A stretch of 10,269 bases of DNA from Pseudomonadota bacterium (GTDB lineage: Bacteria; Bdellovibrionota; FAC87; UBA2466). Each line of letters begins with the position of its first letter. Within the stretch, counting starts at the first letter, position 1. Shown piece after piece: positions 1 to 10,269 of this stretch. A model generated the notes under the pieces. It saw only the letters and a list, made by a program, of their open reading frames with translations, ran no database searches and had not been told where the DNA came from. Location: assembly GCA_043718025.1 (NCBI GenBank), contig JAYSWN010000118.1, forward strand, positions 1 through 10,269, given 5' to 3'. A program made the position numbers and the translations under genes.

Positions 1-2441
1 GACTTGCGCGAGAGTAGAAACGCCGGCAAATAGATAATGGCGACGGCCGCGCAGCAGATTTCACCGAGCACCGCCAGCACCCCAAAACTTACGAAGGCCC
101 GATTGCCCGCTAACACAAGCGATGCGTAGCCAATCATCGTGGTAAGGCTGCAAAGACCAACCGCCCCGCCGGTGTAGCGGATGGTATCTAACATGCTGTC
201 TTTGCCGTCTTGGCGGTAGCGTTGAAAAATATTTACGCCGTAATCGACCCCAATTCCAAAAGTGATGGGCAAGGCGATAAAATTTAGGAAATTAATTTTT
301 AGATCAAAACCAAAAATAAGCGCGGCCAACCACACCACACCAATCCAAACCGTGAAAGAGACCAGCGCGATCATTTTCAGATTTTGAAATAAAACGGTCA
401 CCAGCAATAGCACCGCCAGCCCGGCAAAAAGGGTTGCCTTGGGCCCGTCGTGGTAGATCGCCGTAATCATGTCGGCGGTGATCGGCAGCTGACCGGCGAT
501 CGCCGTTTCCGGATTTACCAGATCCACGGCTTCCCTTAAGTCGCGAACAAAGCTCATGGTTACCAGCGCATTTTCTTCTTGGCCGGCCAGCACCACCGGT
601 TTATCGACGAGAACCAAGCGGCCTCGCGAACCGTCGGTTTCGGTAAATTTGTCTAAGATCATGGTGCTTAGTTCAGACTCTACAAAAGGGGTTGCCCCTT
701 CACCCGCCACAATTTGTTCAGCGATCCCTCGGTATTCTGCGGGTATCATTTTGACGACTGACGGGGTCAAGATTTTTCTGAATTCTTTGATCTCCACAAT
801 TTTTTTGGCCTGGTCCGGCGGCACTAAATCATCCAACGTTTGCACCCAAGCAATTTGGCTTTTTTCCCCTTCTTTTTCTTTCTTGGCGCGAAGGGTGGTG
901 GCGATACGTCGGGCGTCTTCTCGCGAATTGGCCAGCAGTACGGTGGGCGACAAATTTTTTCCGAAGATGTCGGCGATGTAGTGGTAGTAAAAACCCGACC
1001 CCGACTTCATGCTTCCCTTATCGCGGAGCTGATTCATGTCGAGCTCCATAATCTGGCGGTTGTGAAGAAAAAAGGTAAGAATCGCCGCCAAAGTTAGGCA
1101 AAGCGAGACCATGGCAATGCCACGAGCTTTGCGCTCAATAAAGGTGGCCAGCGGTCCGGCAATTAGCGGCTTGGGCGCAACGTCCCCTTCTTTTAGAAGC
1201 CCTCGCCATTTATCGAGCACGGAGAGAAAGCCCGGCAAGATGGTGAAGGCGCTTATCCAGCACAGAACCATGCCGGCCAGACCGATCACCCCAAACTGGT
1301 TAAAGCCCCGGAAGTCGGTCAGCATGAGCGAGCCGTAAGATAGTCCCGCAGCTAAGGCGGCGACGGCGGTTGGCTTTGATGTGGCAGCGACGGATATCAC
1401 CGTGGCCCGCGAATGGCCGCGCCCTTTGCGGCGTTCTTCTAGATAGCGGGCGAGATAAATAATGCCGAAATTGATTCCGTTGCCGATAACGATGCTCGCC
1501 AAAAAGGCAGAATTGGCATTTAAGTAGCCGGTTAAAAAATAGGCGGCCCCCATGGTCCAGATGGTTCCCATCAAAACACTTAGGGTCAGGGCGAAAGTAG
1601 CCCAGAAAGTGCGGTAATAAATCCACAGCGACGCAATGACCAAGAGTATCACCACAATGGTGGTGAATTGCAGATCGGCAATCAGGGCGCCATGCTCATC
1701 GATAAGATTTTGCGTGTTGCCGGTGTAGCGTACTTCTAAATCGGCGGCGTACGATTTGGGATTCAACGTGGCGATGGTCTTTTCTACGGTGCGCTTGAGC
1801 GTTAAGGCCGCTTCGATATCGGCGGCCCGTCCGGGTAAGTTGACGATGACCACGCGTTTGGTTTGGTCTTTCGAAGCATAAAAGCCGTCGGGGAAGCGAT
1901 CAACAAAAGAGGCCTGGTCGGAGTACTTGCGCTTGAAAGCCGCAAAATCAAAGGTTGGCTCTTCCGCCAAACCGAGACCAAGCCCCGCCTGGTCTTTTTC
2001 GTAGGCGACCTTTTCTTTAACGTAGTTTTTGAGTTTTACTAGATCATCAAATTCTAAAAAAAGCGCGCGCCGCTTACGAAAAAACTCCATTTCGGCATCG
2101 ATGCGGTATTCCACCCCGGCCACCAGGTTTTTGGGCAATTTATCGAGCTCCGTGGCCAGATCGATAACAAACCGTTTGCTTGCGTTTGGATCGGCGGAGA
2201 AAGTGAGCACCACCAGATTTTCAACCGACTTGAGTCTTTTTCCGAGTCGCCCTAGGTCGACTACGCTGCGGGCGGTGGTGGGCAAAAGCTCTTCAATGTT
2301 GGTGCGAAGATTCATGTACAGCAGCACCGTGTAATAGGCACCGGCAACCGCGACTAACGTTCCCACTACTGAAACCCAACCCGCCTGCCGGAGAACCAGA
2401 CGCGATAGAAAGCGGAGAAATTTTTTACTTATGTTTTTCAT
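1..2441 (-). CDS. MMPL/RND-superfamily transporter (HpnN/MmpL-like lipid exporter), 3' end truncated by the window edge
   Basis: Manual minus-strand translation from ATG at 2441 (MKNISKKFLRFLSRLVLRQAGWVSVVG...) stays open to the left edge (...YLPAFLLSRK), 813 codons in the window. It has the two-repeat RND topology: TM1, a large periplasmic loop (LRTNIEELLP...RYTGNTQ), a TM bundle (GNGINFGIIYLARYLEER; GSLMLTDFRGFNQFG), a second loop, and a second bundle (LPITFGIGVDYGVNIFQRY; CSLTTMIGYASL; FVSFG). The ORF track missed it, presumably because there is no stop codon in the window. Confidence 0.93.
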   Translation of the reverse strand, partial: MKNISKKFLRFLSRLVLRQAGWVSVVGTLVAVAGAYYTVLLYMNLRTNIEELLPTTARSVVDLGRLGKRLKSVENLVVLTFSADPNASKRFVIDLATELDKLPKNLVAGVEYRIDAEMEFFRKRRALFLEFDDLVKLKNYVKEKVAYEKDQAGLGLGLAEEPTFDFAAFKRKYSDQASFVDRFPDGFYASKDQTKRVVIVNLPGRAADIEAALTLKRTVEKTIATLNPKSYAADLEVRYTGNTQNLIDEHGALIADLQFTTIVVILLVIASLWIYYRTFWATFALTLSVLMGTIWTMGAAYFLTGYLNANSAFLASIVIGNGINFGIIYLARYLEERRKGRGHSRATVISVAATSKPTAVAALAAGLSYGSLMLTDFRGFNQFGVIGLAGMVLCWISAFTILPGFLSVLDKWRGLLKEGDVAPKPLIAGPLATFIERKARGIAMVSLCLTLAAILTFFLHNRQIMELDMNQLRDKGSMKSGSGFYYHYIADIFGKNLSPTVLLANSREDARRIATTLRAKKEKEGEKSQIAWVQTLDDLVPPDQAKKIVEIKEFRKILTPSVVKMIPAEYRGIAEQIVAGEGATPFVESELSTMILDKFTETDGSRGRLVLVDKPVVLAGQEENALVTMSFVRDLREAVDLVNPETAIAGQLPITADMITAIYHDGPKATLFAGLAVLLLVTVLFQNLKMIALVSFTVWIGVVWLAALIFGFDLKINFLNFIALPITFGIGVDYGVNIFQRYRQDGKDSMLDTIRYTGGAVGLCSLTTMIGYASLVLAGNRAFVSFGVLAVLGEICCAAVAIIYLPAFLLSRK

Positions 2442-2475
2442 GATGGTTTTTTGCCCGTCCTAAATGGGGACCAAT

Positions 2476-3318
2476 CTATTCTATAAATTTGCCCGAGGCG
2501 ATTTTCTCAAGATTAATTCCTTTAAAGGCCGTTTCACTGGCTTTGCCAATGCGATCGTAATCCCAATCTGAATTTTCTGCCTTAAACCTTAATGCCAAAA
2601 GCGAGAGGTAACTTCCCTGTAGACTCTCTTTCCAAACGTCTTCGCTACCCACCGCATTGATTCCGAATAGCCCCAGTCCGTAGTTGGCCTCGTAGAATTC
2701 ATAATCGGAGTAATAGGTGAGATTTGGCCCTTTAGATTCGATTACGACCAAGGCGTCACTAAATCGCAGGCGGTCGCCTTGTTTAAGCTGCGATCGGTAC
2801 ATCTTGATGCCGGGCCCTGGCTGCACGGCAAGGTGATTCATCTGGTACTTTACGTTTGGCACGAAGAAGACGGGAATTTTTCTCTCCCAAGCCAAGGTCG
2901 TTTTATTTCGGTCTTTGGCAACAATCTCTACCGTCTTGTCACCGGGAAAAAGCTCTTGGTAATGGGCGAAGTCGTCAATGACGGCGGCCACCGCGCTAAA
3001 CGGGGCTTTGATGCCCATACATTTTTTAAAGCCGATGTAGTAACGACGTTCGGGCGTCGGGATTTTAATCATTTGGATTTGCAAAGGCTCGGTTTCGTAG
3101 TGGCAGAAGCTGCGCCCTTTCGGCCAAGCTTTGCTGAGCTGAATGAGTGGTTCGGCGTAGAGGCTATTTGGCCCCTCAAGCTTTTCATCGAACGGATAAT
3201 CGGCGTTGCCACTCGAGGGGGTAGTGACCGGGTGGGCGGCTTCGGTGGCATGGGCTCGGCTTGCTGGTAAAAAAGGCAATGAACTCAATAAAAAAGCGAA
3301 GGAGGCGGATAAGATCAT
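2476..3318 (-). CDS. Secreted/periplasmic START/SRPBCC (Bet v1-like, polyketide cyclase-like) domain protein, putative lipid-binding
   Basis: 280-aa ORF with an N-terminal signal peptide (MILSASFAFLLSSLPFLPASRAHA). The segment IKAPFSAVAAVIDDFAHYQELFPGDKTVEIV resembles the SRPBCC hallmark 'I.AP.e.V...l.D...y.e..P....v.v', followed by predicted beta strands and a C-terminal helix (VWKESLQGSYLSLLALRFKAE). It lies 10 nt after the DedA stop and 34 nt before the MMPL start. Confidence 0.72.
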   Translation of the reverse strand: MILSASFAFLLSSLPFLPASRAHATEAAHPVTTPSSGNADYPFDEKLEGPNSLYAEPLIQLSKAWPKGRSFCHYETEPLQIQMIKIPTPERRYYIGFKKCMGIKAPFSAVAAVIDDFAHYQELFPGDKTVEIVAKDRNKTTLAWERKIPVFFVPNVKYQMNHLAVQPGPGIKMYRSQLKQGDRLRFSDALVVIESKGPNLTYYSDYEFYEANYGLGLFGINAVGSEDVWKESLQGSYLSLLALRFKAENSDWDYDRIGKASETAFKGINLEKIASGKFIE

Positions 3319-3328
3319 GAGTTAGATC

Positions 3329-3856
3329 TTAACATACGGCTTTCGCCTCTTTTTGCCCAAACCGGTGCGGTGAAAAGGCCGCCAACCGGGCAATAAAACA
3401 GTATTTAATTAGATTTCCCGCCCCGATCGAAAGTGCAATCTGAGAGTTGGGCACTTTAGCCATGACGCATATCACCACCGCCGGCGGCAGGGGCAGCAGG
3501 GTAACGGCCCCTAAAAAAAGGCCAAACGTACCGTGTTCATTAATAAATTGGCTTGCTTCGTGCCAACGCACTGGCCCCATGTAGCTGGCCAACCAGTTTG
3601 CCCATTGGGGCTGAGTTTCGACTAGCCGCGCTAAAACATAAGTGGCCAGGCTTGAGCAAACGGCCGCGAGTAACGCCATGCGCCACCAGCTCTTAGGCCG
3701 AATTAGCACTCTTAAAATAATAAAAACTTCGACCGGAATAAACGCAAGAAAGGCGTTCAGCGCCGCAACCCCCGCCATGAGCACAACGTAGCCTGGACGC
3801 CCTATGTATTCGCCAAGCCGTAGTTGCCATTTTGAAAGTTTCTGCTTTAGGCCCAT
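3329..3856 (-). CDS. DedA/VTT (SNARE-associated Golgi, YqaA-like) membrane protein
   Basis: Hydrophobic ORF with AALNAFLAFIPVEVF (cf. YqaA 'SFFPIPPD'), ALLAAVCSSLATYVLAR, FINEHGTFGLFLGAVTLLPLP (cf. 'yG...l.l...tPlP') and GNLIKY (cf. 'GR..Ry'). The start was moved from 3910 to ATG 3856 (MGLKQKLSKW) so it does not overlap the divergent gene and promoter region. Confidence 0.82.
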   Translation of the reverse strand: MGLKQKLSKWQLRLGEYIGRPGYVVLMAGVAALNAFLAFIPVEVFIILRVLIRPKSWWRMALLAAVCSSLATYVLARLVETQPQWANWLASYMGPVRWHEASQFINEHGTFGLFLGAVTLLPLPPAVVICVMAKVPNSQIALSIGAGNLIKYCFIARLAAFSPHRFGQKEAKAVC

Positions 3857-3965
3857 CGCGCAGATAAAACCATGATTCAGGTGAGTGGGCCACCCCTCAA
3901 AAAATTTCATTTTTGAATTCCCTGAGGCTTGCGATGAGGGGCCCAGTCATTTACTCTTTGGCCAT

Positions 3966-4583
3966 ATGAACAGCGTAATCCAACGGTTCCTCGACTTGGT
4001 TCTTTCCGTTTATCTCTACAACGAATGGCGTGGCTACATGCAGATGGAAGAATCACTCATTCCTCAGCTTGAGGCCAATCCGAATATGGATCGTGAATTT
4101 GTAGAGGCAGTTAAAAAGCATTGTGCGGATGAAAAGAAACACTACGGCATGTTTAAAGGCTATTTCATCGCCAATGGGCGTATGCCTTTCGCCGTAGGCA
4201 AATCAATTGGCTATTTTGATGCCCTAACCAGCGTGCTGCTTGGGCGTAAAGACAATGTAGTTTTGGACGAACACAATTTTGCTAAGCTCTGTCGGGCCAT
4301 CGTTACTACGGAGTACCGCGGTATTAACCAGGTGGACACCATGCTTAACTGGCGTTCGATTGATCGCGACGACCGTCTGCGCGAGATTTTTAAGGTGATA
4401 AAAAAAGATGAGCCTTCGCATTTCATTCCTTACAATGAATGGCTTGCGAAAAAAGGGCTTCGGGGTCCGTCGAGGCTCGAAAAAATTGCTGACCTAGTGG
4501 TGCATTATTCGATTGCTGCCTTCGTAATTCCCGTGCATTTCCTAAACTTCAGATTGAAACGGGTCGAGAGTTTCGCGGCCTAA
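3966..4583 (+). CDS. Ferritin-like di-iron carboxylate protein (possible hydroxylase/desaturase/oxidase)
   Basis: Counting from ATG 3966 (205 aa), the ligand pattern is E20 (YNEWRG), E56xxH59 (ADEKKH), E116 (TTEYRG) and E149xxH152 (KDEPSH). This is the canonical E/ExxH/E/ExxH four-helix-bundle di-iron motif. There is a hydrophobic C-terminal segment (LVVHYSIAAFVIPVHFL). The ORF-track start at 3885 is a GTG and likely too far upstream. Confidence 0.85.
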   Translation: MNSVIQRFLDLVLSVYLYNEWRGYMQMEESLIPQLEANPNMDREFVEAVKKHCADEKKHYGMFKGYFIANGRMPFAVGKSIGYFDALTSVLLGRKDNVVLDEHNFAKLCRAIVTTEYRGINQVDTMLNWRSIDRDDRLREIFKVIKKDEPSHFIPYNEWLAKKGLRGPSRLEKIADLVVHYSIAAFVIPVHFLNFRLKRVESFAA

Positions 4584-4599
4584 GCCCGAAAGTTATCCT

Positions 4600-5628
4600 T
4601 CATCCCGCCTTCAACTCAGTCCAGGCGCGACTGATACGTTGTAATGAAACGTCTTGAATGTGACGCAGAAAGAATAGGCGCTCATCTGCTGGGCCTTGGG
4701 TGGCGGCCGGTTCGCGCTTTCTGCTCGAAGGCAGTGAATAAGGGTTAGAAAAGCCATTTAGCGTCTGCAATTCAGTAGCGTGCGCTGAATCCATCAAATA
4801 GTTCATAAAAATGTGAGCCTCGTCTTTGCGCTTTGAGGTGGCCGCCACCACCATCGTGTCGACCCACTTTATTGCCCCTTCCTTTGGCAAAACATATTTT
4901 AAATGAGGCCGCAGCCGCGTGGCCTCGGCACCCTGATAAGAAAATGCGTGCGCAATGGTGATGTCGTCGCGTTGCACCAAACCCACCGGTTCTGAGTTAA
5001 ACGAAACTACGTGGTCGCGGGCCGCAAATAAAACCTTGCGGGCGGTTTCTACCGCCTCTTCATCCAAATTGTTTGGGTTTCTCCCTTTCCACATTAAGGC
5101 GGCTGCAAAGACTTCGCGCATGTCGTCCATCAGGTAGGTGTTGCGCATGTCTTTTGACTCAAAGAGGGCGCTCCAGCTAAGTCCGTCGGGAGGCAAGGCG
5201 ATACGCTTGGTGTTTACAATAAGGCCGGTAGAACCTTCTAAAAAGGGGAGCGAGTACACCAAACCGGGATCGTAGGGCACGGCAATTAGGGCGTCAGTGA
5301 GTTGCCCTAGGTGTTTCAACTTTGATTTGTCGATCGGTGAAAGAAGGCCAACCTTTGCCAGTCGCTCGACCATGTAGTCAGAGGGCTGCATTAGATCGTA
5401 ACCGGTAGCTCCCGCCTTGAGTTTGGCAAACAGCTCTTCGTTGCTCGAAATCAGGTGAACCTGCACCGCGATGCCCGTTTCGGCCGTAAACTTCTCCAAG
5501 AAGGGCTTGGGCAGGTACTGGCTCCACGACACAATGTTGAGGGTATGCGTTTTTGATTCGGGCATTAACTGCCGGGCCAAAATCAAAAACGCGATGACTA
5601 CGGGGATCAGAGCAAGTTTTATTTTCAC
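4600..5628 (-). CDS. potD: Spermidine/putrescine-type ABC transporter substrate-binding protein (PotD/PotF family)
   Basis: 342 aa with an N-terminal signal/anchor. Family motifs: LNIVSWSQYLP, FTAETGIAV, SNEELFAKL, GYDLMQPSDYMV, YDPG..YSLP, DDMRE, PKEGAIKWVD, AHIFMNYL, RAWTELKAG. GTG start at 5628, 28 nt downstream of hss. Confidence 0.9.
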   Translation of the reverse strand: MKIKLALIPVVIAFLILARQLMPESKTHTLNIVSWSQYLPKPFLEKFTAETGIAVQVHLISSNEELFAKLKAGATGYDLMQPSDYMVERLAKVGLLSPIDKSKLKHLGQLTDALIAVPYDPGLVYSLPFLEGSTGLIVNTKRIALPPDGLSWSALFESKDMRNTYLMDDMREVFAAALMWKGRNPNNLDEEAVETARKVLFAARDHVVSFNSEPVGLVQRDDITIAHAFSYQGAEATRLRPHLKYVLPKEGAIKWVDTMVVAATSKRKDEAHIFMNYLMDSAHATELQTLNGFSNPYSLPSSRKREPAATQGPADERLFFLRHIQDVSLQRISRAWTELKAG

Positions 5629-5656
5629 TAGTTTTTTTGTCTCGGTGCGGTGGTGT

Positions 5657-7108
5657 TTATTCTTGGACTAAAAAGTTTTTGAACTGCCATGGATCAGTAG
5701 GATCAATGTTTTGTTCCGCAAAACGGCCAAAGTAATTTTTATGTTGCTTGAGCGGATTCCAATCAACCTGAGTTGAGATCGATTCTCCAAGGTACGGATT
5801 GGCAATCTTTAAAATATAGTCGTGCGGCAAACTGTCGGGCACCACAACTCCGCGACTTGGGTTTTCAATCATCCATAGAGTGGCGGCCACCACAGAGATG
5901 GCCACTTGCAGGGTGGTGGCGTTCTGGTGCGGCACTAAACGACGCGACTCTTCAATGGTGAGAACACTTCCCACCCACCACGCCTGATAGTCGTGGCCCA
6001 TGATGAGTGCGCCGAGAATGTCGGCGCCTTCGGTAATCTCGTCGTTAAGAATGCGAATCTTGGGCTGCAGCTCGTAATGATAGCCCCGCAGTTCGTTCAA
6101 CGAAGCAATTGCCGAGTCAGTCGGGCAATAAGCGTAGTGAACGGTGGGGCGGTAAATTGCCTTATCGCCATCCCAAACCGTGAGCTTGTCCGAAATGGTA
6201 AATGCCTCACCGTGACGCACTACCATCCCTTGAATTTCATAATTCGGAACCCACGATCGCACCCAAGTATTCATGCCCATGCGAGCCAAGCAAATTTGGT
6301 TCTTTGGCCCATCCGCGTGCTCATACGCCAACGCGGGCAGCGTTTTTTCGTGCGTGCCCCAGCCCATTTCGGCGGTCGTGGTGCCCTCTTCGCGGAAGCC
6401 CTCTACGCTCCAGGTGTTTACGAATTCATCTACGGCTTTCGGCTGCGCGGTAATTTGCGTATCGCGCTCACTGCAGTGAATGACCTTAACGCCAAGTTCG
6501 TGGGCCAAGTGATTGAACGAACGGTCGCTTAAGTGCTGCTGAATTTTTTCTTTGCGTTCACCGTTGGCTTTGCCATCGCTAAGTAATTTTTGGGCAATTT
6601 CAATGAGCCCGAATTTGGTCCAATGCGAAATCAGTCCCGGGTTGGCTCCGTGCTCAAGCACCGCAGTAGGGCCGGGCTGGCTCCAGCCTGCAATCATTTT
6701 ACGCACCTTCATGTGGCGGTGGTAAAGCGTGCGCTCTTGGGGCGTTAGCTTATCGGCATTTTCGTAGGGGTCCCACACTTCAACCGACGTGTTTAAGTAA
6801 TTCACACCGTGATCATGACACCACTGCAGAAGCTCGCAGCAGTCGATGTTCCACGCCAAGTCGACCAAAACATCGCCCTCGCTTACCAGCGTGGCCAGTT
6901 GCGAAGTGAGGTTGTTTTTTTCAACGCGCATTTTAATAAATTTAAGCCCTTGGGCGGTGTAAGGGGCCAGGGCACTAGCGCGATCTTCAAAATCCACGAC
7001 GGTGAGATTTTTCAAAGGCATTTTTAAGTGCTTTAGGAGTAACGGCAGCATGCACTGGGCAACCGCCCCGTAACCAACGACAACAACACGCCCGGAAAAA
7101 TCAATCAC
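5657..7108 (-). CDS. hss: Homospermidine synthase (saccharopine dehydrogenase-like fold, NAD-dependent)
   Basis: Rossmann motif VVVVGYGAVAQ plus HSS motifs HGANPGLISH, IHCSERDTQ, FVNTWSVEGFREEG, AEMGWGTHEK, VRSWVP, HGEA, YRPTVHYAYCP, NATTLQVA and the C-terminal DPWQFKNF. Likely start is GTG at 7108 (483 aa) with a GAGG Shine-Dalgarno 5 nt upstream. The extra 31 aa in the ORF track (poly-Pro) looks like UTR read-through. Confidence 0.95.
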   Translation of the reverse strand: MIDFSGRVVVVGYGAVAQCMLPLLLKHLKMPLKNLTVVDFEDRASALAPYTAQGLKFIKMRVEKNNLTSQLATLVSEGDVLVDLAWNIDCCELLQWCHDHGVNYLNTSVEVWDPYENADKLTPQERTLYHRHMKVRKMIAGWSQPGPTAVLEHGANPGLISHWTKFGLIEIAQKLLSDGKANGERKEKIQQHLSDRSFNHLAHELGVKVIHCSERDTQITAQPKAVDEFVNTWSVEGFREEGTTTAEMGWGTHEKTLPALAYEHADGPKNQICLARMGMNTWVRSWVPNYEIQGMVVRHGEAFTISDKLTVWDGDKAIYRPTVHYAYCPTDSAIASLNELRGYHYELQPKIRILNDEITEGADILGALIMGHDYQAWWVGSVLTIEESRRLVPHQNATTLQVAISVVAATLWMIENPSRGVVVPDSLPHDYILKIANPYLGESISTQVDWNPLKQHKNYFGRFAEQNIDPTDPWQFKNFLVQE

Positions 7109-7173
7109 TGCCACCTCAATTTTATGAATCGAACGGATGTAACTAGGGGGAGGGGGTAGGGGCAATGTGCTGT

Positions 7174-7201
7174 ATTGTGCCGCATTAATTAATGTGCACA
7201 A
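7174..7201 (-). promoter_or_regulatory. Candidate sigma70-type promoter/operator for hss-potD with dyad symmetry
   Basis: The minus strand reads TTGTGC-N16-CACAAT. The same stretch is an imperfect inverted repeat, TTGTGC-CG-CATTAATTAATG-T-GCACAA (7175-7201), with a perfect 12-bp palindromic core at 7183-7194. Confidence 0.35.
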
Positions 7202-7252
7202 AACGATCGCATATTTTTGTGACGGCGGAGGGGGGCGCTCTGCTTCGCGAAA

Positions 7253-7759
7253 TTATTCGTGGGTGCTCATTTCATCTTTGCCGTCAGCAACGTGGCTTAC
7301 GCTAAGGGTTCCGTCGGGCTCGAGCACCGCCGTTTGGATATCGGCAAAGTGGTGAATGCCTTGTTTGCGCAGTAGAACCTTTAATTCGTTGTGGGTAATT
7401 CGTTCTTCTTTCATGTGTTTTTCGACGATTTTTCCGCGATGAACCAGCAGCGTCGGCGTGCCTTCAAAAATGAGTCGGGCCCGGCGGCTACGAAAGGTGA
7501 ACATTGAAATGAGCCAACTCAAAAAGATCAAGGCGGCAGCTAGGATGAGGCCGCCAAGCAGAGAGTTGTCACCGCCATTCATTGAGTTCTGTACTGCGTT
7601 ACTGATGAGCAAAATCGCCACGAATTCTGTGGCCGACATCTGTGCCATCTGCCTTTTGCCGCTGATTCTGAGCAAAATGATCACACTCAAAAAGACGACT
7701 GTTCCTCGAATAATGAGATTCAGGGGGGAAAGCGAAAGGCTGGTTAGGTTGTGCCACAT
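7253..7759 (-). CDS. DUF421 / YetF-family membrane protein
   Basis: 168 aa with LLRISGKRQMAQMSATEFVAILLISNAVQN, three TM segments, LIFEGTPTLLVHRGKI, and C-terminal LRKQGI...AVLEPDGTLSV, all typical of DUF421. Confidence 0.92.
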   Translation of the reverse strand: MWHNLTSLSLSPLNLIIRGTVVFLSVIILLRISGKRQMAQMSATEFVAILLISNAVQNSMNGGDNSLLGGLILAAALIFLSWLISMFTFRSRRARLIFEGTPTLLVHRGKIVEKHMKEERITHNELKVLLRKQGIHHFADIQTAVLEPDGTLSVSHVADGKDEMSTHE

Positions 7760-8053
7760 AATTGGTGAGATTAGCCCCCGCGTCTGGGGCGGGCAATATG
7801 GTGGTTAAACTCTCCTCTGCCACGGCCGTTGGTTGGGCATAGGGGTTTAAGTTGGTTTGGCCCCTCTGGAGCTTACCGTCAGGCTGCACACTGTGAAGAA
7901 GACAGCACATTCGGCGTGAGTTCAAATCACTACCAATTTATGGGTTAAAGCATTGAAATCTATTGAGTTTAGGCTTGGCGGCGGACGGCCAACAGTTCTT
8001 CCACACTCTTCACATATATTGAAGATACTTAACAACTTACTCACTTATTACCA

Positions 8054-8329
8054 ATGCGAAACGTCGGCCTATTCATTCTACTTTTTACGCTACAAATCAC
8101 TCCGGTGAGGGCATCCGTTTTTGGTGGCGAGCAAATTAGGATGGCTTCGGCGGCCAGCGCGTTGCCAAAAAATTCCACCGTCATTGAGCGATCGAACGAA
8201 TGCAATTCCAGTTGCCTTAAAGGAAAGATCCACGTCACCTGCACCGAAGATAAATCAGCCGATTGTTCCTGCCAGAATGAGTATCCTGTTTTCAAATGCG
8301 AAAAGGTTTCGCTGAACGCCGTACATTAA
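8054..8329 (+). CDS. Small secreted cysteine-rich protein (6 Cys), unknown function
   Basis: 91 aa with a signal-peptide-like N-terminus (MRNVGLFILLFTLQITPVRA/S). All six Cys cluster in the C-terminal 42 aa as C-x3-C-x8-C-x7-C-x-C-x8-C. It fills an otherwise empty gap in the same orientation as the downstream genes. Confidence 0.65.
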   Translation: MRNVGLFILLFTLQITPVRASVFGGEQIRMASAASALPKNSTVIERSNECNSSCLKGKIHVTCTEDKSADCSCQNEYPVFKCEKVSLNAVH

Positions 8330-8433
8330 TTTCTCAACCCCAAAATCCCCCTTTTTCAATTGAGCAACTCATTGCAGTTGAGCGCAATCGCCGTTTGGGT
8401 TAGCTAGGTCAGGCTCACGGGAGGTGCGGTTTG

Positions 8434-9285
8434 ATGAGATGGTGGTGTTTCTTAGTTTTTATTCATATTGCTGGATGTTTACCGGCTTTTGGCAAAGCCG
8501 ATGAAGTGGTTAAGAAAGTCATTCGCACACTGCAAACGGCGAAGCTAAAACTGCCCACTACGTTTTTGGATTATGAGTTGGCCGAGGGCGTGGCCGGCTG
8601 CTCACAGATTTTGGTGATGGCGGGCGTTCGAGCGCCAGAACACTTGATACCCAAATTGGTTTTAGAACGGTCGGTAGATGCCGCTGCCGATAAATTAGAT
8701 GGCCTTTTTGAAGAGGTTGCCCACCATTTTCCCAAAAAAGTTGCTTCGATAATGAGGTCGATTTACCTGGCTAAGGGGTTCGTTAAATTCGATCTGGAGT
8801 CAACGGAGAGCTTTTGGCAGGCACGAAGAGAAGTTACGGATTCGGAAAGCAAAATTGCGCTCACCTCGCTTTCATTGCGTCGGGGCTTTGCCACGAGCAA
8901 AGTGGTTCGACGTCTGATCCTACTCACCCAGGCTATACGCACGGGCTTTTTTTTACTCGACCTCAGTGAAGCTGATTCCACTCAAGTGAATGACGTTACC
9001 CTCGGTGACAATGCGCAGGCCGTAGATATTTTGTGGTCGCAAATGCACACGATAGCCTTGGAGCACACCATTTACGCTCTGGTGCCCGGCATCCATCTTG
9101 ATGCCGATATGCAGCTCAACGTGCCTGACCCCCTTTTGGCCGCCCAATTATTTACTGATCGCAAAATGATTGCCCGTCCAGGTTTGCGCGAAGTTCTGTC
9201 GGATTATTTTGGCCCAAAATTTTTTGCTTCCGTTGAGGATATTGATGCGGAAATTGATGGGTTTATGGAAATTTGGGAGCCTTAA
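8434..9285 (+). CDS. Hypothetical exported protein (signal peptide or lipoprotein), no recognised domain
   Basis: About 283-aa ORF with a strong RBS, GGAGGT at 8420-8425, 8 nt before ATG 8434 (alternative start TTG 8431). The N-terminus MRWWCFLVFIHIAGCLPAFG could be cleaved by SPI (AFG/K) or contain a lipobox (IAG/C). Confidence 0.8.
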   Translation: MRWWCFLVFIHIAGCLPAFGKADEVVKKVIRTLQTAKLKLPTTFLDYELAEGVAGCSQILVMAGVRAPEHLIPKLVLERSVDAAADKLDGLFEEVAHHFPKKVASIMRSIYLAKGFVKFDLESTESFWQARREVTDSESKIALTSLSLRRGFATSKVVRRLILLTQAIRTGFFLLDLSEADSTQVNDVTLGDNAQAVDILWSQMHTIALEHTIYALVPGIHLDADMQLNVPDPLLAAQLFTDRKMIARPGLREVLSDYFGPKFFASVEDIDAEIDGFMEIWEP

Positions 9286-9357
9286 AGTGCCGTTTTTTGG
9301 CACGCTAACTCGTTGTAGTTGAAGATAGAGAGAAGCGGTGATAGGGGCATTTTTCCA

Positions 9358-9386
9358 TTGTTTGGCTTGCGGGTTTTCGCTATACC
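9358..9386 (+). promoter_or_regulatory. Possible sigma70 promoter for the 9436 gene
   Basis: TTGTTT (9358-9363), a 17-nt spacer, then TATACC (9381-9386), about 50 nt upstream of ATG 9436. Weak match to consensus. Confidence 0.25.
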
Positions 9387-9435
9387 TCGTTCCTGTCGTA
9401 AGTAAACGGGTTGGGCGTATAGGGAAGTAAAAAAC

Positions 9436-10128
9436 ATGCGCTCTTTGCTAAATTTCATGATCCTTGGTCTTTGCCTCTTCAACGCCGAAGCTCTGCGGGC
9501 CCAAGAAGGCAAGGCAAGCGTAAAATTACCGGTGCCCCCTCCGCCTAAGCCTGGTTTGACCGTAGAAACTCCGGCCGTTTTACCCGTTCCCGCTGCGGCC
9601 GCGACCGTAACTCAGAAGGGCTACCCGCTTCCCGCCGTTGCCGCCGTTCCCGCGGTTGCCGCGGTTGAAACTGCAATACCGGTTTCCCACTTGGTTTCCA
9701 ATGCGGACGAGTTTGTTGTGATCCATGAACGTATGGTAACGCAGTTGGGGTATCCACGGGCCGTCGGTCATTCGGCAGGCATCGCTAAGATGGTGAATTG
9801 TTTATTCAACAATACCGCCGAGCAAAAAGCTGATTTTCTGGACCAGTTCATTCAAAATTTGTCTTTCGGTACCGAGAATAATCTTCGCCGCTCATTGGTT
9901 TTAAATGAGGCCCGACTGGTGGGTAACGACATTCGCAACTCTCCTCAAGCGGCACGATTGGCGGCGATTCTGGCCTGCAAAATGGGCGACCGTCCCTTTG
10001 AAACTTTGATTGCAGATTTCGACGCCGCGGTTATTGAACTTTCATTCAAAATGGAAAAAGTAACCAGCGGAAAAGGCCGAAACCCCGCGTTCTTTCAGCT
10101 CATCACCGTCGCTGAGTTAATGAATTAG
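9436..10128 (+). CDS. Hypothetical secreted protein with Pro/Ala/Val-rich N-terminal linker
   Basis: 230 aa with a signal peptide (MRSLLNFMILGLCLFNAEALRA/Q). A low-complexity region follows (PVPPPPKPG...PAVAAVPAVAAV), then a roughly 140-aa helical-looking domain with two Cys. AGGGAAG lies upstream as an RBS-like sequence. Confidence 0.8.
   Translation: MRSLLNFMILGLCLFNAEALRAQEGKASVKLPVPPPPKPGLTVETPAVLPVPAAAATVTQKGYPLPAVAAVPAVAAVETAIPVSHLVSNADEFVVIHERMVTQLGYPRAVGHSAGIAKMVNCLFNNTAEQKADFLDQFIQNLSFGTENNLRRSLVLNEARLVGNDIRNSPQAARLAAILACKMGDRPFETLIADFDAAVIELSFKMEKVTSGKGRNPAFFQLITVAELMN
9631..9666 (+). repeat. Intragenic tandem repeat, 2 x 18 nt (4 x 9 nt), encoding PAVAAV-PAVAAV
   Basis: CCCGCCGTTGCCGCCGTT followed by CCCGCGGTTGCCGCGGTT (16/18 identical). 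Confidence 0.8.
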
Positions 10129-10149
10129 TAGAAAAAGAGCCCCTAACTA

Positions 10150-10260
10150 GTTCCTGTCGGGAAATGAAAACATCCGCCCGAAGGGCGGTCCTAAATTTCT
10201 TCCCGACCGGAACGTGTCCTGAGGCGCAGCCGAAGGATCTCGTTGTACCCGGCAGAGCCG
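10150..10260. repeat. Nested inverted-repeat / REP- or MITE-like structured element (may also act as a terminator)
   Basis: Arms GTTCCTGTCGGGAA (10150-10163) and TTCCCGACCGGAAC (10200-10213) are 13/14 complementary and enclose the hairpin CCGCCC-GAA-GGGCGG (10174-10188). Next come TCCT-GA-GGC-GCA-GCC-GA-AGGA (10217-10237) and CGGC-AGA-GCCG (10250-10260). Confidence 0.65.
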
Positions 10261-10269
10261 TTCTTGAGG

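Follow-up and report, generated by a model that had tools for sequence, protein, structure and literature searches.

A START-type lipid carrier paired with an MMPL transporter in Bdellovibrionota: a candidate ceramide export unit

We analyzed a stretch of 10,269 nucleotides (the window), which is the entire contig C22 of a Bdellovibrionota genome (G000; 4.1 Mb, 92% complete), and focused on two adjacent genes encoding an MMPL/HAE3-type RND lipid transporter and a predicted secreted START/SRPBCC lipid carrier. Our best explanation, which as a whole we hold at about even chances, is that the two genes form a unit exporting a ceramide-type lipid. The original prediction had proposed a larger lipid trafficking module, in which a di-iron enzyme modifies, a DedA protein flips, the MMPL extracts and the START protein shuttles a specialised lipid. 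The link between MMPL and START stood, based on adjacency, one fusion and matching sub-branches, whereas the DedA and di-iron genes dropped out; MMPL and START are the only conserved unit of the four genes.

The MMPL gene (3..2441, minus strand) encodes 813 aa with the C-terminus open at the contig edge; homologues align through residue 809-813, so little of the C-terminus is missing. Gene identities assigned originally (MMPL, START, DedA/VTT and ferritin-like) were supported: MMPL by Pfam above its cut-off, DedA/VTT by a Pfam match below it, and the weak START and ferritin-like calls by structure models. Pfam MMPL (PF03176) matched the transporter in two stretches (E 2e-29, 102.8 bits vs a cut-off of 20.5), and hydropathy analysis gave 10 segments in the expected 1+5/1+5 spacing, compared with the ~12 transmembrane (TM) helices and two large periplasmic loops typical of such proteins. 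The best NCBIfam models were those of HpnN (TIGR03480 and NF052374, at 232/752 and 149/1100 bits), the BstA model reached 131/1400 bits, all below their cut-offs, and the closest solved structure in a PDB sequence search was HpnN 5khn (E 3e-41). The TM4 aspartate of HpnN has a proton-relay role. At the position of this Asp in 5khn the window MMPL has Asn324, with Asn in 41/43 MMPL rows, and an Asp733-Tyr734 pair in TM10 is invariant (43/43); the 43 MMPL loci are a non-random pick out of more than 100 matches. Two distant MMPL paralogues occur elsewhere in the same genome (C207:25368-27743 and C109:6698-8875), the latter clustered, on our reading of the sequence, with acyl-carrier/ketosynthase-like and glycosyltransferase-like open reading frames (ORFs).

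The START gene (2476..3318, minus strand; 280 aa with an N-terminal signal-like segment) lies 34 nt from the MMPL gene. By Pfam alone the START call was not significant (E 0.07), and a PDB sequence search returned no match for the protein. Its AlphaFold2 (AF2) model (pLDDT 85) has the helix-grip fold that had been anticipated, with a Foldseek E of 1e-8. The VIA fold matches were headed by the Xanthomonas START protein 3qsz (Z 15.9, root-mean-square deviation (rmsd) 2.6, 165 aligned), tied with the START domain of CERT, 2e3m (Z 15.8, rmsd 3.2 over 192 residues, 8% identity), and included StARD5 and StAR (Z 14.6). A fused START homologue passes Polyketide_cyc2 of Pfam. The family comprises 295 representatives at 50% identity. 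An N-terminal hydrophobic stretch was detected in 113/125 family members vs 19/779 core segments, and a lipobox in 2/125; because the former is common and the latter rare, we predict START to be soluble and periplasmic, in agreement with the secretion proposed originally. When the close START alignment was used for pattern scans, only 3 genome and 4 metagenome loci were recovered, two of the metagenome ones being weak.

To place the pair in context, we surveyed 401 genomes of the phylum (G numbers denote genomes of this phylum, L numbers loci or metagenome contigs), of which 48 encode a START family member and 97 an MMPL with 40% or more identity to that of the window (close MMPL). START was adjacent to, or fused with, a close MMPL in 8 genomes representing 7 genera and 2 families, as well as on one metagenome contig, in four arrangements: START first (G000, G019), MMPL first (G052, G113, G361, G397, G271), a 1,100-aa MMPL-START fusion found in G002 only, and a head-to-head pair with a frameshifted MMPL on contig L070. 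A truncated match (G283:C19) and weak START matches in G102 and G380 were excluded from these counts. In the G002 fusion a hydrophobic segment (820-838) is retained ahead of START, so that START would sit in the periplasm. The 8 START-linked MMPLs fall inside one 11-row branch of the MMPL tree (SH-aLRT 98), and the 9 MMPL-linked STARTs inside one 23-row branch of the START tree (SH-aLRT 93), a clustering beyond 500/500 shuffles; both trees derive from quick searches. Since linked members form branches in both trees, the phylogenies indicate joint inheritance of the pair across four or more gene arrangements, possibly with one origin. Recurring adjacency, the fusion and the matching sub-branches make it very probable that START and MMPL are coupled in function. 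A complex prediction of MMPL residues 32-805 with START residues 44-268 scored 0.00 and was weighed neither for nor against binding. The gene-neighbourhood conservation expected of the original module was thus found for MMPL and START, in these 8 genomes, while DedA and ferritin-like genes were present only at the window's own locus.

The neighbours of the MMPL genes differ between START-linked and sister branches. Among 11 START-branch loci, a glycosyltransferase of GT21, the ceramide glucosyltransferase family, was present in 5, a GtrA-type small flippase-like gene in 3 and Mla or inositol genes in none; the 33 other MMPL loci contained mlaE/mlaD (17), Ino1 (13), PIP synthase (11) and inositol-phosphoceramide (IPC)-synthase-like genes (6), and neither GT21 nor START. 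No IPC-synthase-like match was detected in any of the 11 START-branch genomes. In G175, a 1,182-aa fusion (L091:5861-9406, minus strand) joins a close-type MMPL to a PI-dihydroceramide-synthase-like PAP2 domain; the fusion gene is divergent from mlaE-mlaD and lies beside a PIP-synthase-like gene. The PI-dihydroceramide-synthase-like gene occurs in 49 genomes, within 400 bp of an MMPL in 15/49 and within 10 kb in 22/49. At ~17/33 of the sister loci, mlaE, a long mlaD (~500 aa) and a gene without a Pfam match (~300 aa) are transcribed away from the MMPL (L079, L082-L085, L087, L089, L100, L105-L108 and others), a set that constitutes a candidate Mla-type partner system. Second IPC-synthase-like copies were also observed within ~3 kb of squalene-hopene-cyclase-like genes in three genomes (G157:C35, G226:C63, G265:C207).

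The original prediction had left the lipid class open and pointed to shc and serine palmitoyltransferase (SPT) genes of the genome as informative. For the triterpene cyclase family PF13243 (squalene-hopene cyclase) no match was obtained in G000, 92% complete as it is. In the cyclase, GT21 and IPC-synthase scans, 17 of the 97 close-MMPL genomes were left out due to low completeness; among the 80 scanned, PF13243 matched in 17, and it matched in 1/11 START-branch genomes. G000 does contain an spt-like gene, in one run with a GNAT and an epimerase gene on a contig other than the window, and the best PDB match of its product is serine palmitoyltransferase (E 5e-124 vs 5e-84 for BioF/Kbl). This order fits spt-bcerS-cerR, from which the last two names would follow, and spt adjoins the GNAT gene also in G019, G113, G271 and G361. 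A bcerS-like gene was detected in 95/97 close-MMPL genomes, 128/304 others and 10/42 with only distant MMPLs, a contrast inflated by kinship. On contig C45 of G000, a GT21 gene occurs with a GH1 glucosidase gene, and no inositol genes were matched in this genome. From these gene complements and, more tellingly, from the MMPL neighbourhoods, the cargo is probably a ceramide-type lipid, most likely plain ceramide or a glucosylated form of it, and less likely inositol-phosphoceramide.

A transporter of hopanoids or sterols, of the HpnN/BstA kind and with HpnI-like neighbours acting on hopanoids, would agree with HpnN as the best NCBIfam and PDB match of the MMPL and with HpnI as the best match of the GT21 genes. 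All HpnN, BstA and HpnI scores are below cut-off, however, and the cyclase is missing from G000 and 10/11 START-branch genomes; we therefore see very little chance for hopanoid or sterol cargo, and the evidence favours a ceramide-type lipid over it.

Several observations weigh against a ceramide-exporting pair. MMPL-linked loci make up just 9/58 of the START loci, no START is seen beside the MMPL in 89/97 close-MMPL genomes (many of these assemblies being fragmented), and the MMPL-START fusion is a single case in which a recent stop loss is possible. The window holds no lipid gene, with spt and GT21 on other contigs of G000. The best NCBIfam model of the spt-like protein is SPT at 502/640 bits, below cut-off, and all GT21 (HpnI-like) and IPC-synthase-like matches are likewise below curated cut-offs. 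We presume the bcerS and cerR names of the GNAT and epimerase genes from gene order and domains; no bCerS or CerR model matched either gene product in G000, and a PDB search of the bcerS-like GNAT was empty. The bcerS-like gene is also near-universal in the relevant families (33/33, 56/58, 17/17), so that its co-occurrence with the MMPL is weak evidence, and in family f10 it is present in 64/100 genomes without this MMPL. IPC-synthase-like presence in 0/8 START-linked vs 49/72 other MMPL genomes gives a Fisher p of 3e-4, which is overstated, as the START branch possibly has one origin. Finally, because CERT is tied with other START folds, the cargo cannot be read from the fold.

The coupled transporter might instead handle another lipid (a glycosyl-diacylglycerol, phospholipid, fatty acid or envelope lipid), with the sphingolipid link reflecting shared ancestry. 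START folds accommodate a wide range of lipids, with a tie at the top of the structural matches; GT21/HpnI-like enzymes may use acceptors other than ceramide; sister MMPLs are often divergent from mlaE-mlaD (17/33); and DUF2156 genes of the aminoacyl-lipid type are also found beside START family members. Nevertheless, we judge this rather unlikely, given that sister MMPLs are fused or tightly adjacent to a PI-dihydroceramide-synthase-like gene and that a bcerS-like match is missing in only 2/97 close-MMPL genomes. Extending the ceramide reading beyond START, one MMPL family might export sphingolipids in much of the phylum, with its partner swapped by head group: IPC synthase and MlaE/MlaD with inositol-phosphoceramide makers, and the periplasmic START, as a bacterial CERT-like ceramide shuttle and once as part of a fused protein, in the branch with neutral or glucosylated ceramide. 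This extension is tentative, and we lean against it.

Under ceramide export by MMPL and START, synthesis of the ceramide would take place at the cytoplasmic face, as it does in Caulobacter, and glucosylation perhaps follow before the lipid arrives in the outer leaflet of the inner membrane. From there the MMPL could extract it, driven by the proton gradient via the TM10 Asp-Tyr pair, and hand it directly to the periplasmic START, which would ferry it across the periplasm to an outer-membrane acceptor. DedA may fill the flippase slot in this one genome, as GtrA-type genes may elsewhere. We infer the outward direction, the proton drive through Asp-Tyr and the direct MMPL-START hand-over, together with the identity of the cargo.

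The reverse direction, for uptake of prey or host lipids, had been raised originally as an alternative. In this reading the pair would take up or recycle prey or environmental lipids, with START delivering to the MMPL. The Bdellovibrionota include predators, and two loci (L118 and L119, in G202 and G217) carry GT21, GH1 glucosidase, START and TonB-dependent receptor genes in one co-directional run; the replacement of the HpnN TM4 Asp by Asn would also suit inward transport. The receptor-linked STARTs are, however, outside the MMPL-linked START branch, and most genes around the MMPL have biosynthetic roles (Ino1, PIP synthase, IPC-synthase-like, GT21). Moreover, HpnN and BstA, the known close families, are described as outward transporters in the available text of PMC11713862. 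Export is thus favoured over prey-lipid uptake, and inward transport appears improbable.

The two remaining genes of the original module lie beyond START. The DedA gene (3329..3856, minus strand; 175 aa) is separated from START by 10 nt, and the ferritin-like gene (3966..4583, plus strand; 205 aa) is head-to-head with DedA across a 109-nt divergent intergenic region (3857..3965); three tightly spaced co-directional genes with a divergent neighbour, as described before, were thus reproduced on recomputing the gaps. DedA matched Pfam VTT at E 6e-4 (20.8 vs a cut-off of 33.9 bits) and aligned full-length with YqaA-type homologues, having Asn where most of these have Arg in the G-R-x-x-K-Y motif. 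Its closest homologue, a single one named YqaA, is 53% identical, and those in related genomes are 23-33% identical only, none being close to START or MMPL; the DedA/VTT genes of five START-MMPL genomes are all on other contigs. By sequence, the window DedA is a divergent second copy of the YqaA-type family. A 193-aa start was ruled out for this ORF, as homologues begin at the Met of the 175-aa form, and likewise a 232-aa start for the ferritin-like ORF, whose homologues begin at the Met of the 205-aa form. DedA is likely co-transcribed with START-MMPL, yet it stands beside START or MMPL in this genome only; a promoter scan of window 2300-4800 revealed no sigma-70 consensus site.

The ferritin-like protein, a di-iron carboxylate protein of a family without name, was weakly matched by Pfam alone (E 0.005), and neither NCBIfam nor PDB sequence searches gave a match. 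Its AF2 model (pLDDT 93) is a four-helix bundle with E..ExxH..E..ExxH ligands, and the ligands E20, E56, H59, E116, E149 and H152 are kept in every covering row (26 rows). VIA matched the model to two ADO-like proteins (Z 15.5, 15.4) and R2lox (Z 14.6), with 11-13% identity for the top matches, whereas Foldseek gave no match at E 0.001; judged from the model, the resemblance to ADO-like proteins and R2lox is one of fold only. In 5/5 other genomes that have it, the gene is unlinked and in unrelated contexts, and it is most likely a bystander. One homologue precedes a binding protein similar to the PotD-like one of the window and an ABC ATPase (L033), a weak alternative link to polyamines. Of two others, in separate genomes, one has methyltransferase, SDR and aldehyde dehydrogenase genes nearby and the other is transcribed away from an AHSA1 (SRPBCC) gene (L036, L037).

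The four-gene route could still represent a lineage-specific pathway. The 10- and 34-nt gaps and the common 109-nt promoter region fit it, as do the intact di-iron site in an ADO/R2lox-like fold and a possible flippase slot, a GtrA-type gene being present in 3/11 START-branch loci. For Caulobacter, the available part of PMC11087976 places ceramide acylation in the cytoplasm and gives the flippase as not known. An unverified hint comes from two pairs of close START/ferritin homologues, P0003/P0018 and P0004/P0021, which match in contig count and longest size (1, 13,532; 5, 12,227), although no DedA homologue matches either pair. In searches of 44 MMPL loci and of START loci, DedA and ferritin-like profiles matched the locus of the window and no other. 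Furthermore, among 301 genomes only 6 have the ferritin-like gene; 4/6 lack the close MMPL type, and G019 has both on separate contigs. A four-gene modify-flip-extract-shuttle unit is therefore not upheld as a general system, and a lineage-restricted one has a low probability in our view.

Elsewhere the START family has other surroundings. Most commonly, in 27/58 loci, it is found beside a DUF2156/MprF-C-like aminoacyl-transferase of ~590 aa, a response-regulator-like protein of ~375 aa, or both (L014, L133, L166-L172, L174, L175, L178-L183 and others), frequently accompanied by a CAAX protease and by a ~280-aa protein that matches no Pfam family; these loci possibly encode an uncharacterised aminoacyl-lipid system. 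A second START paralogue immediately precedes a pirin gene in three genomes, all of the same genus (L021, on contig C26 of the window's own genome, L015 and L018), and in L015 and L018 genes for a histidine kinase and for a BioF/SPT-like enzyme of 580 aa are transcribed away from it. The 580-aa aminotransferase was considered as an SPT and dropped, its best NCBIfam model being BioF.

Beyond the ferritin-like gene, the minus strand of the window encodes, at 4600-7201, a homospermidine-synthase-like protein (name inferred from saccharopine dehydrogenase domains), followed by a PotD-like binding protein with no ABC permease genes beside it, and at 7253-7759 a YetF/DUF421 membrane protein. The three plus-strand ORFs at 8054-8329 (Cys-rich), 8431-9285 and 9436-10128 (with a Pro/Ala-rich stretch) match no Pfam family and have signal-like N-termini. 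As noted originally, no membrane-fusion protein (MFP) or TolC gene is present within the window. An 11,695-bp contig of a possible source run matched window 1-10170 with one difference and reaches 1,523 bp further left; it argues against a mis-join, as evidence that is not independent of the window DNA. The contig end at ~10144-10269 is covered by a short contig at ~88-fold depth vs 10 elsewhere, which suggests a repeated element at the contig break.

Compared with known systems, START resembles the START domain of CERT (STARD11), which in humans is a soluble ceramide shuttle between membranes, in its fold (Z 15.8). CERT is multi-domain and 8% identical, whereas the window START is single-domain and predicted periplasmic, so that CERT is an analogue at most. 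HpnN of Burkholderia multivorans (5khn) shares the MMPL/HAE3 architecture and the lack of MFP and TolC genes in the locus. It differs in having its acidic residue in TM4 rather than TM10 and in its partner, the MlaC-like HpnM instead of a START protein; the window MMPL stays below the HpnN cut-offs, and its genome gave no triterpene cyclase match.

BstABC of Methylococcus capsulatus, as described in the available text of PMC11713862, combines an MmpL-family inner-membrane protein with a periplasmic lipid-binding protein to move sterol outward. It is thus similar to the window pair in its inner-membrane MmpL-type protein and periplasmic lipid carrier, although that carrier is a PhnD-like binding protein rather than a START fold. 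No BstB/BstC-like partner, BstC-like lipoprotein or sterol gene is present at the window locus, within the DNA to the right of the MMPL end. In Myxococcus xanthus, an MmpL encoded directly after spt has been hypothesized to export sphingolipids (bioRxiv 10.64898/2026.04.12.717747). The two MMPLs are alike in proposed role and come from related bacterial groups; the M. xanthus gene adjoins spt, with no carrier named in the available part of the preprint, whereas window-type MMPLs are unlinked to spt and linked to START, GT21 or inositol-ceramide genes. The same preprint, as far as available, assigns sphingolipid transport in Caulobacter to LptF2/LptG2/LptC2, an ABC-type Lpt paralogue with the same proposed task and unrelated to MMPL or START, and describes the periplasmic step as unknown, with other taxa probably using other routes. 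The Bacteroides inositol-sphingolipid cluster BT_1522-BT_1526 (PI-DHC synthase, PIP synthase and MIPS; PMC9246714, in whose main text the word "transport" does not occur) has homologues flanking 11-13/33 of the sister MMPL loci. None of these genes was found in the START-linked branch or matched in the window genome.

In the open-access literature we found no description of a periplasmic START partnered with an MMPL. The sphingolipid route to the outer membrane is open for most bacteria, and the locus offers a small, soluble and easily expressed candidate carrier together with a transporter family in which the neighbouring genes vary according to the predicted head group of the ceramide; carrier and transporter are directly testable. 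START-MMPL would work like the exporter-plus-carrier systems HpnN and BstABC, yet it belongs to neither, and if the cargo is not ceramide, START would still be a new carrier type for HpnN/BstA-like exporters.

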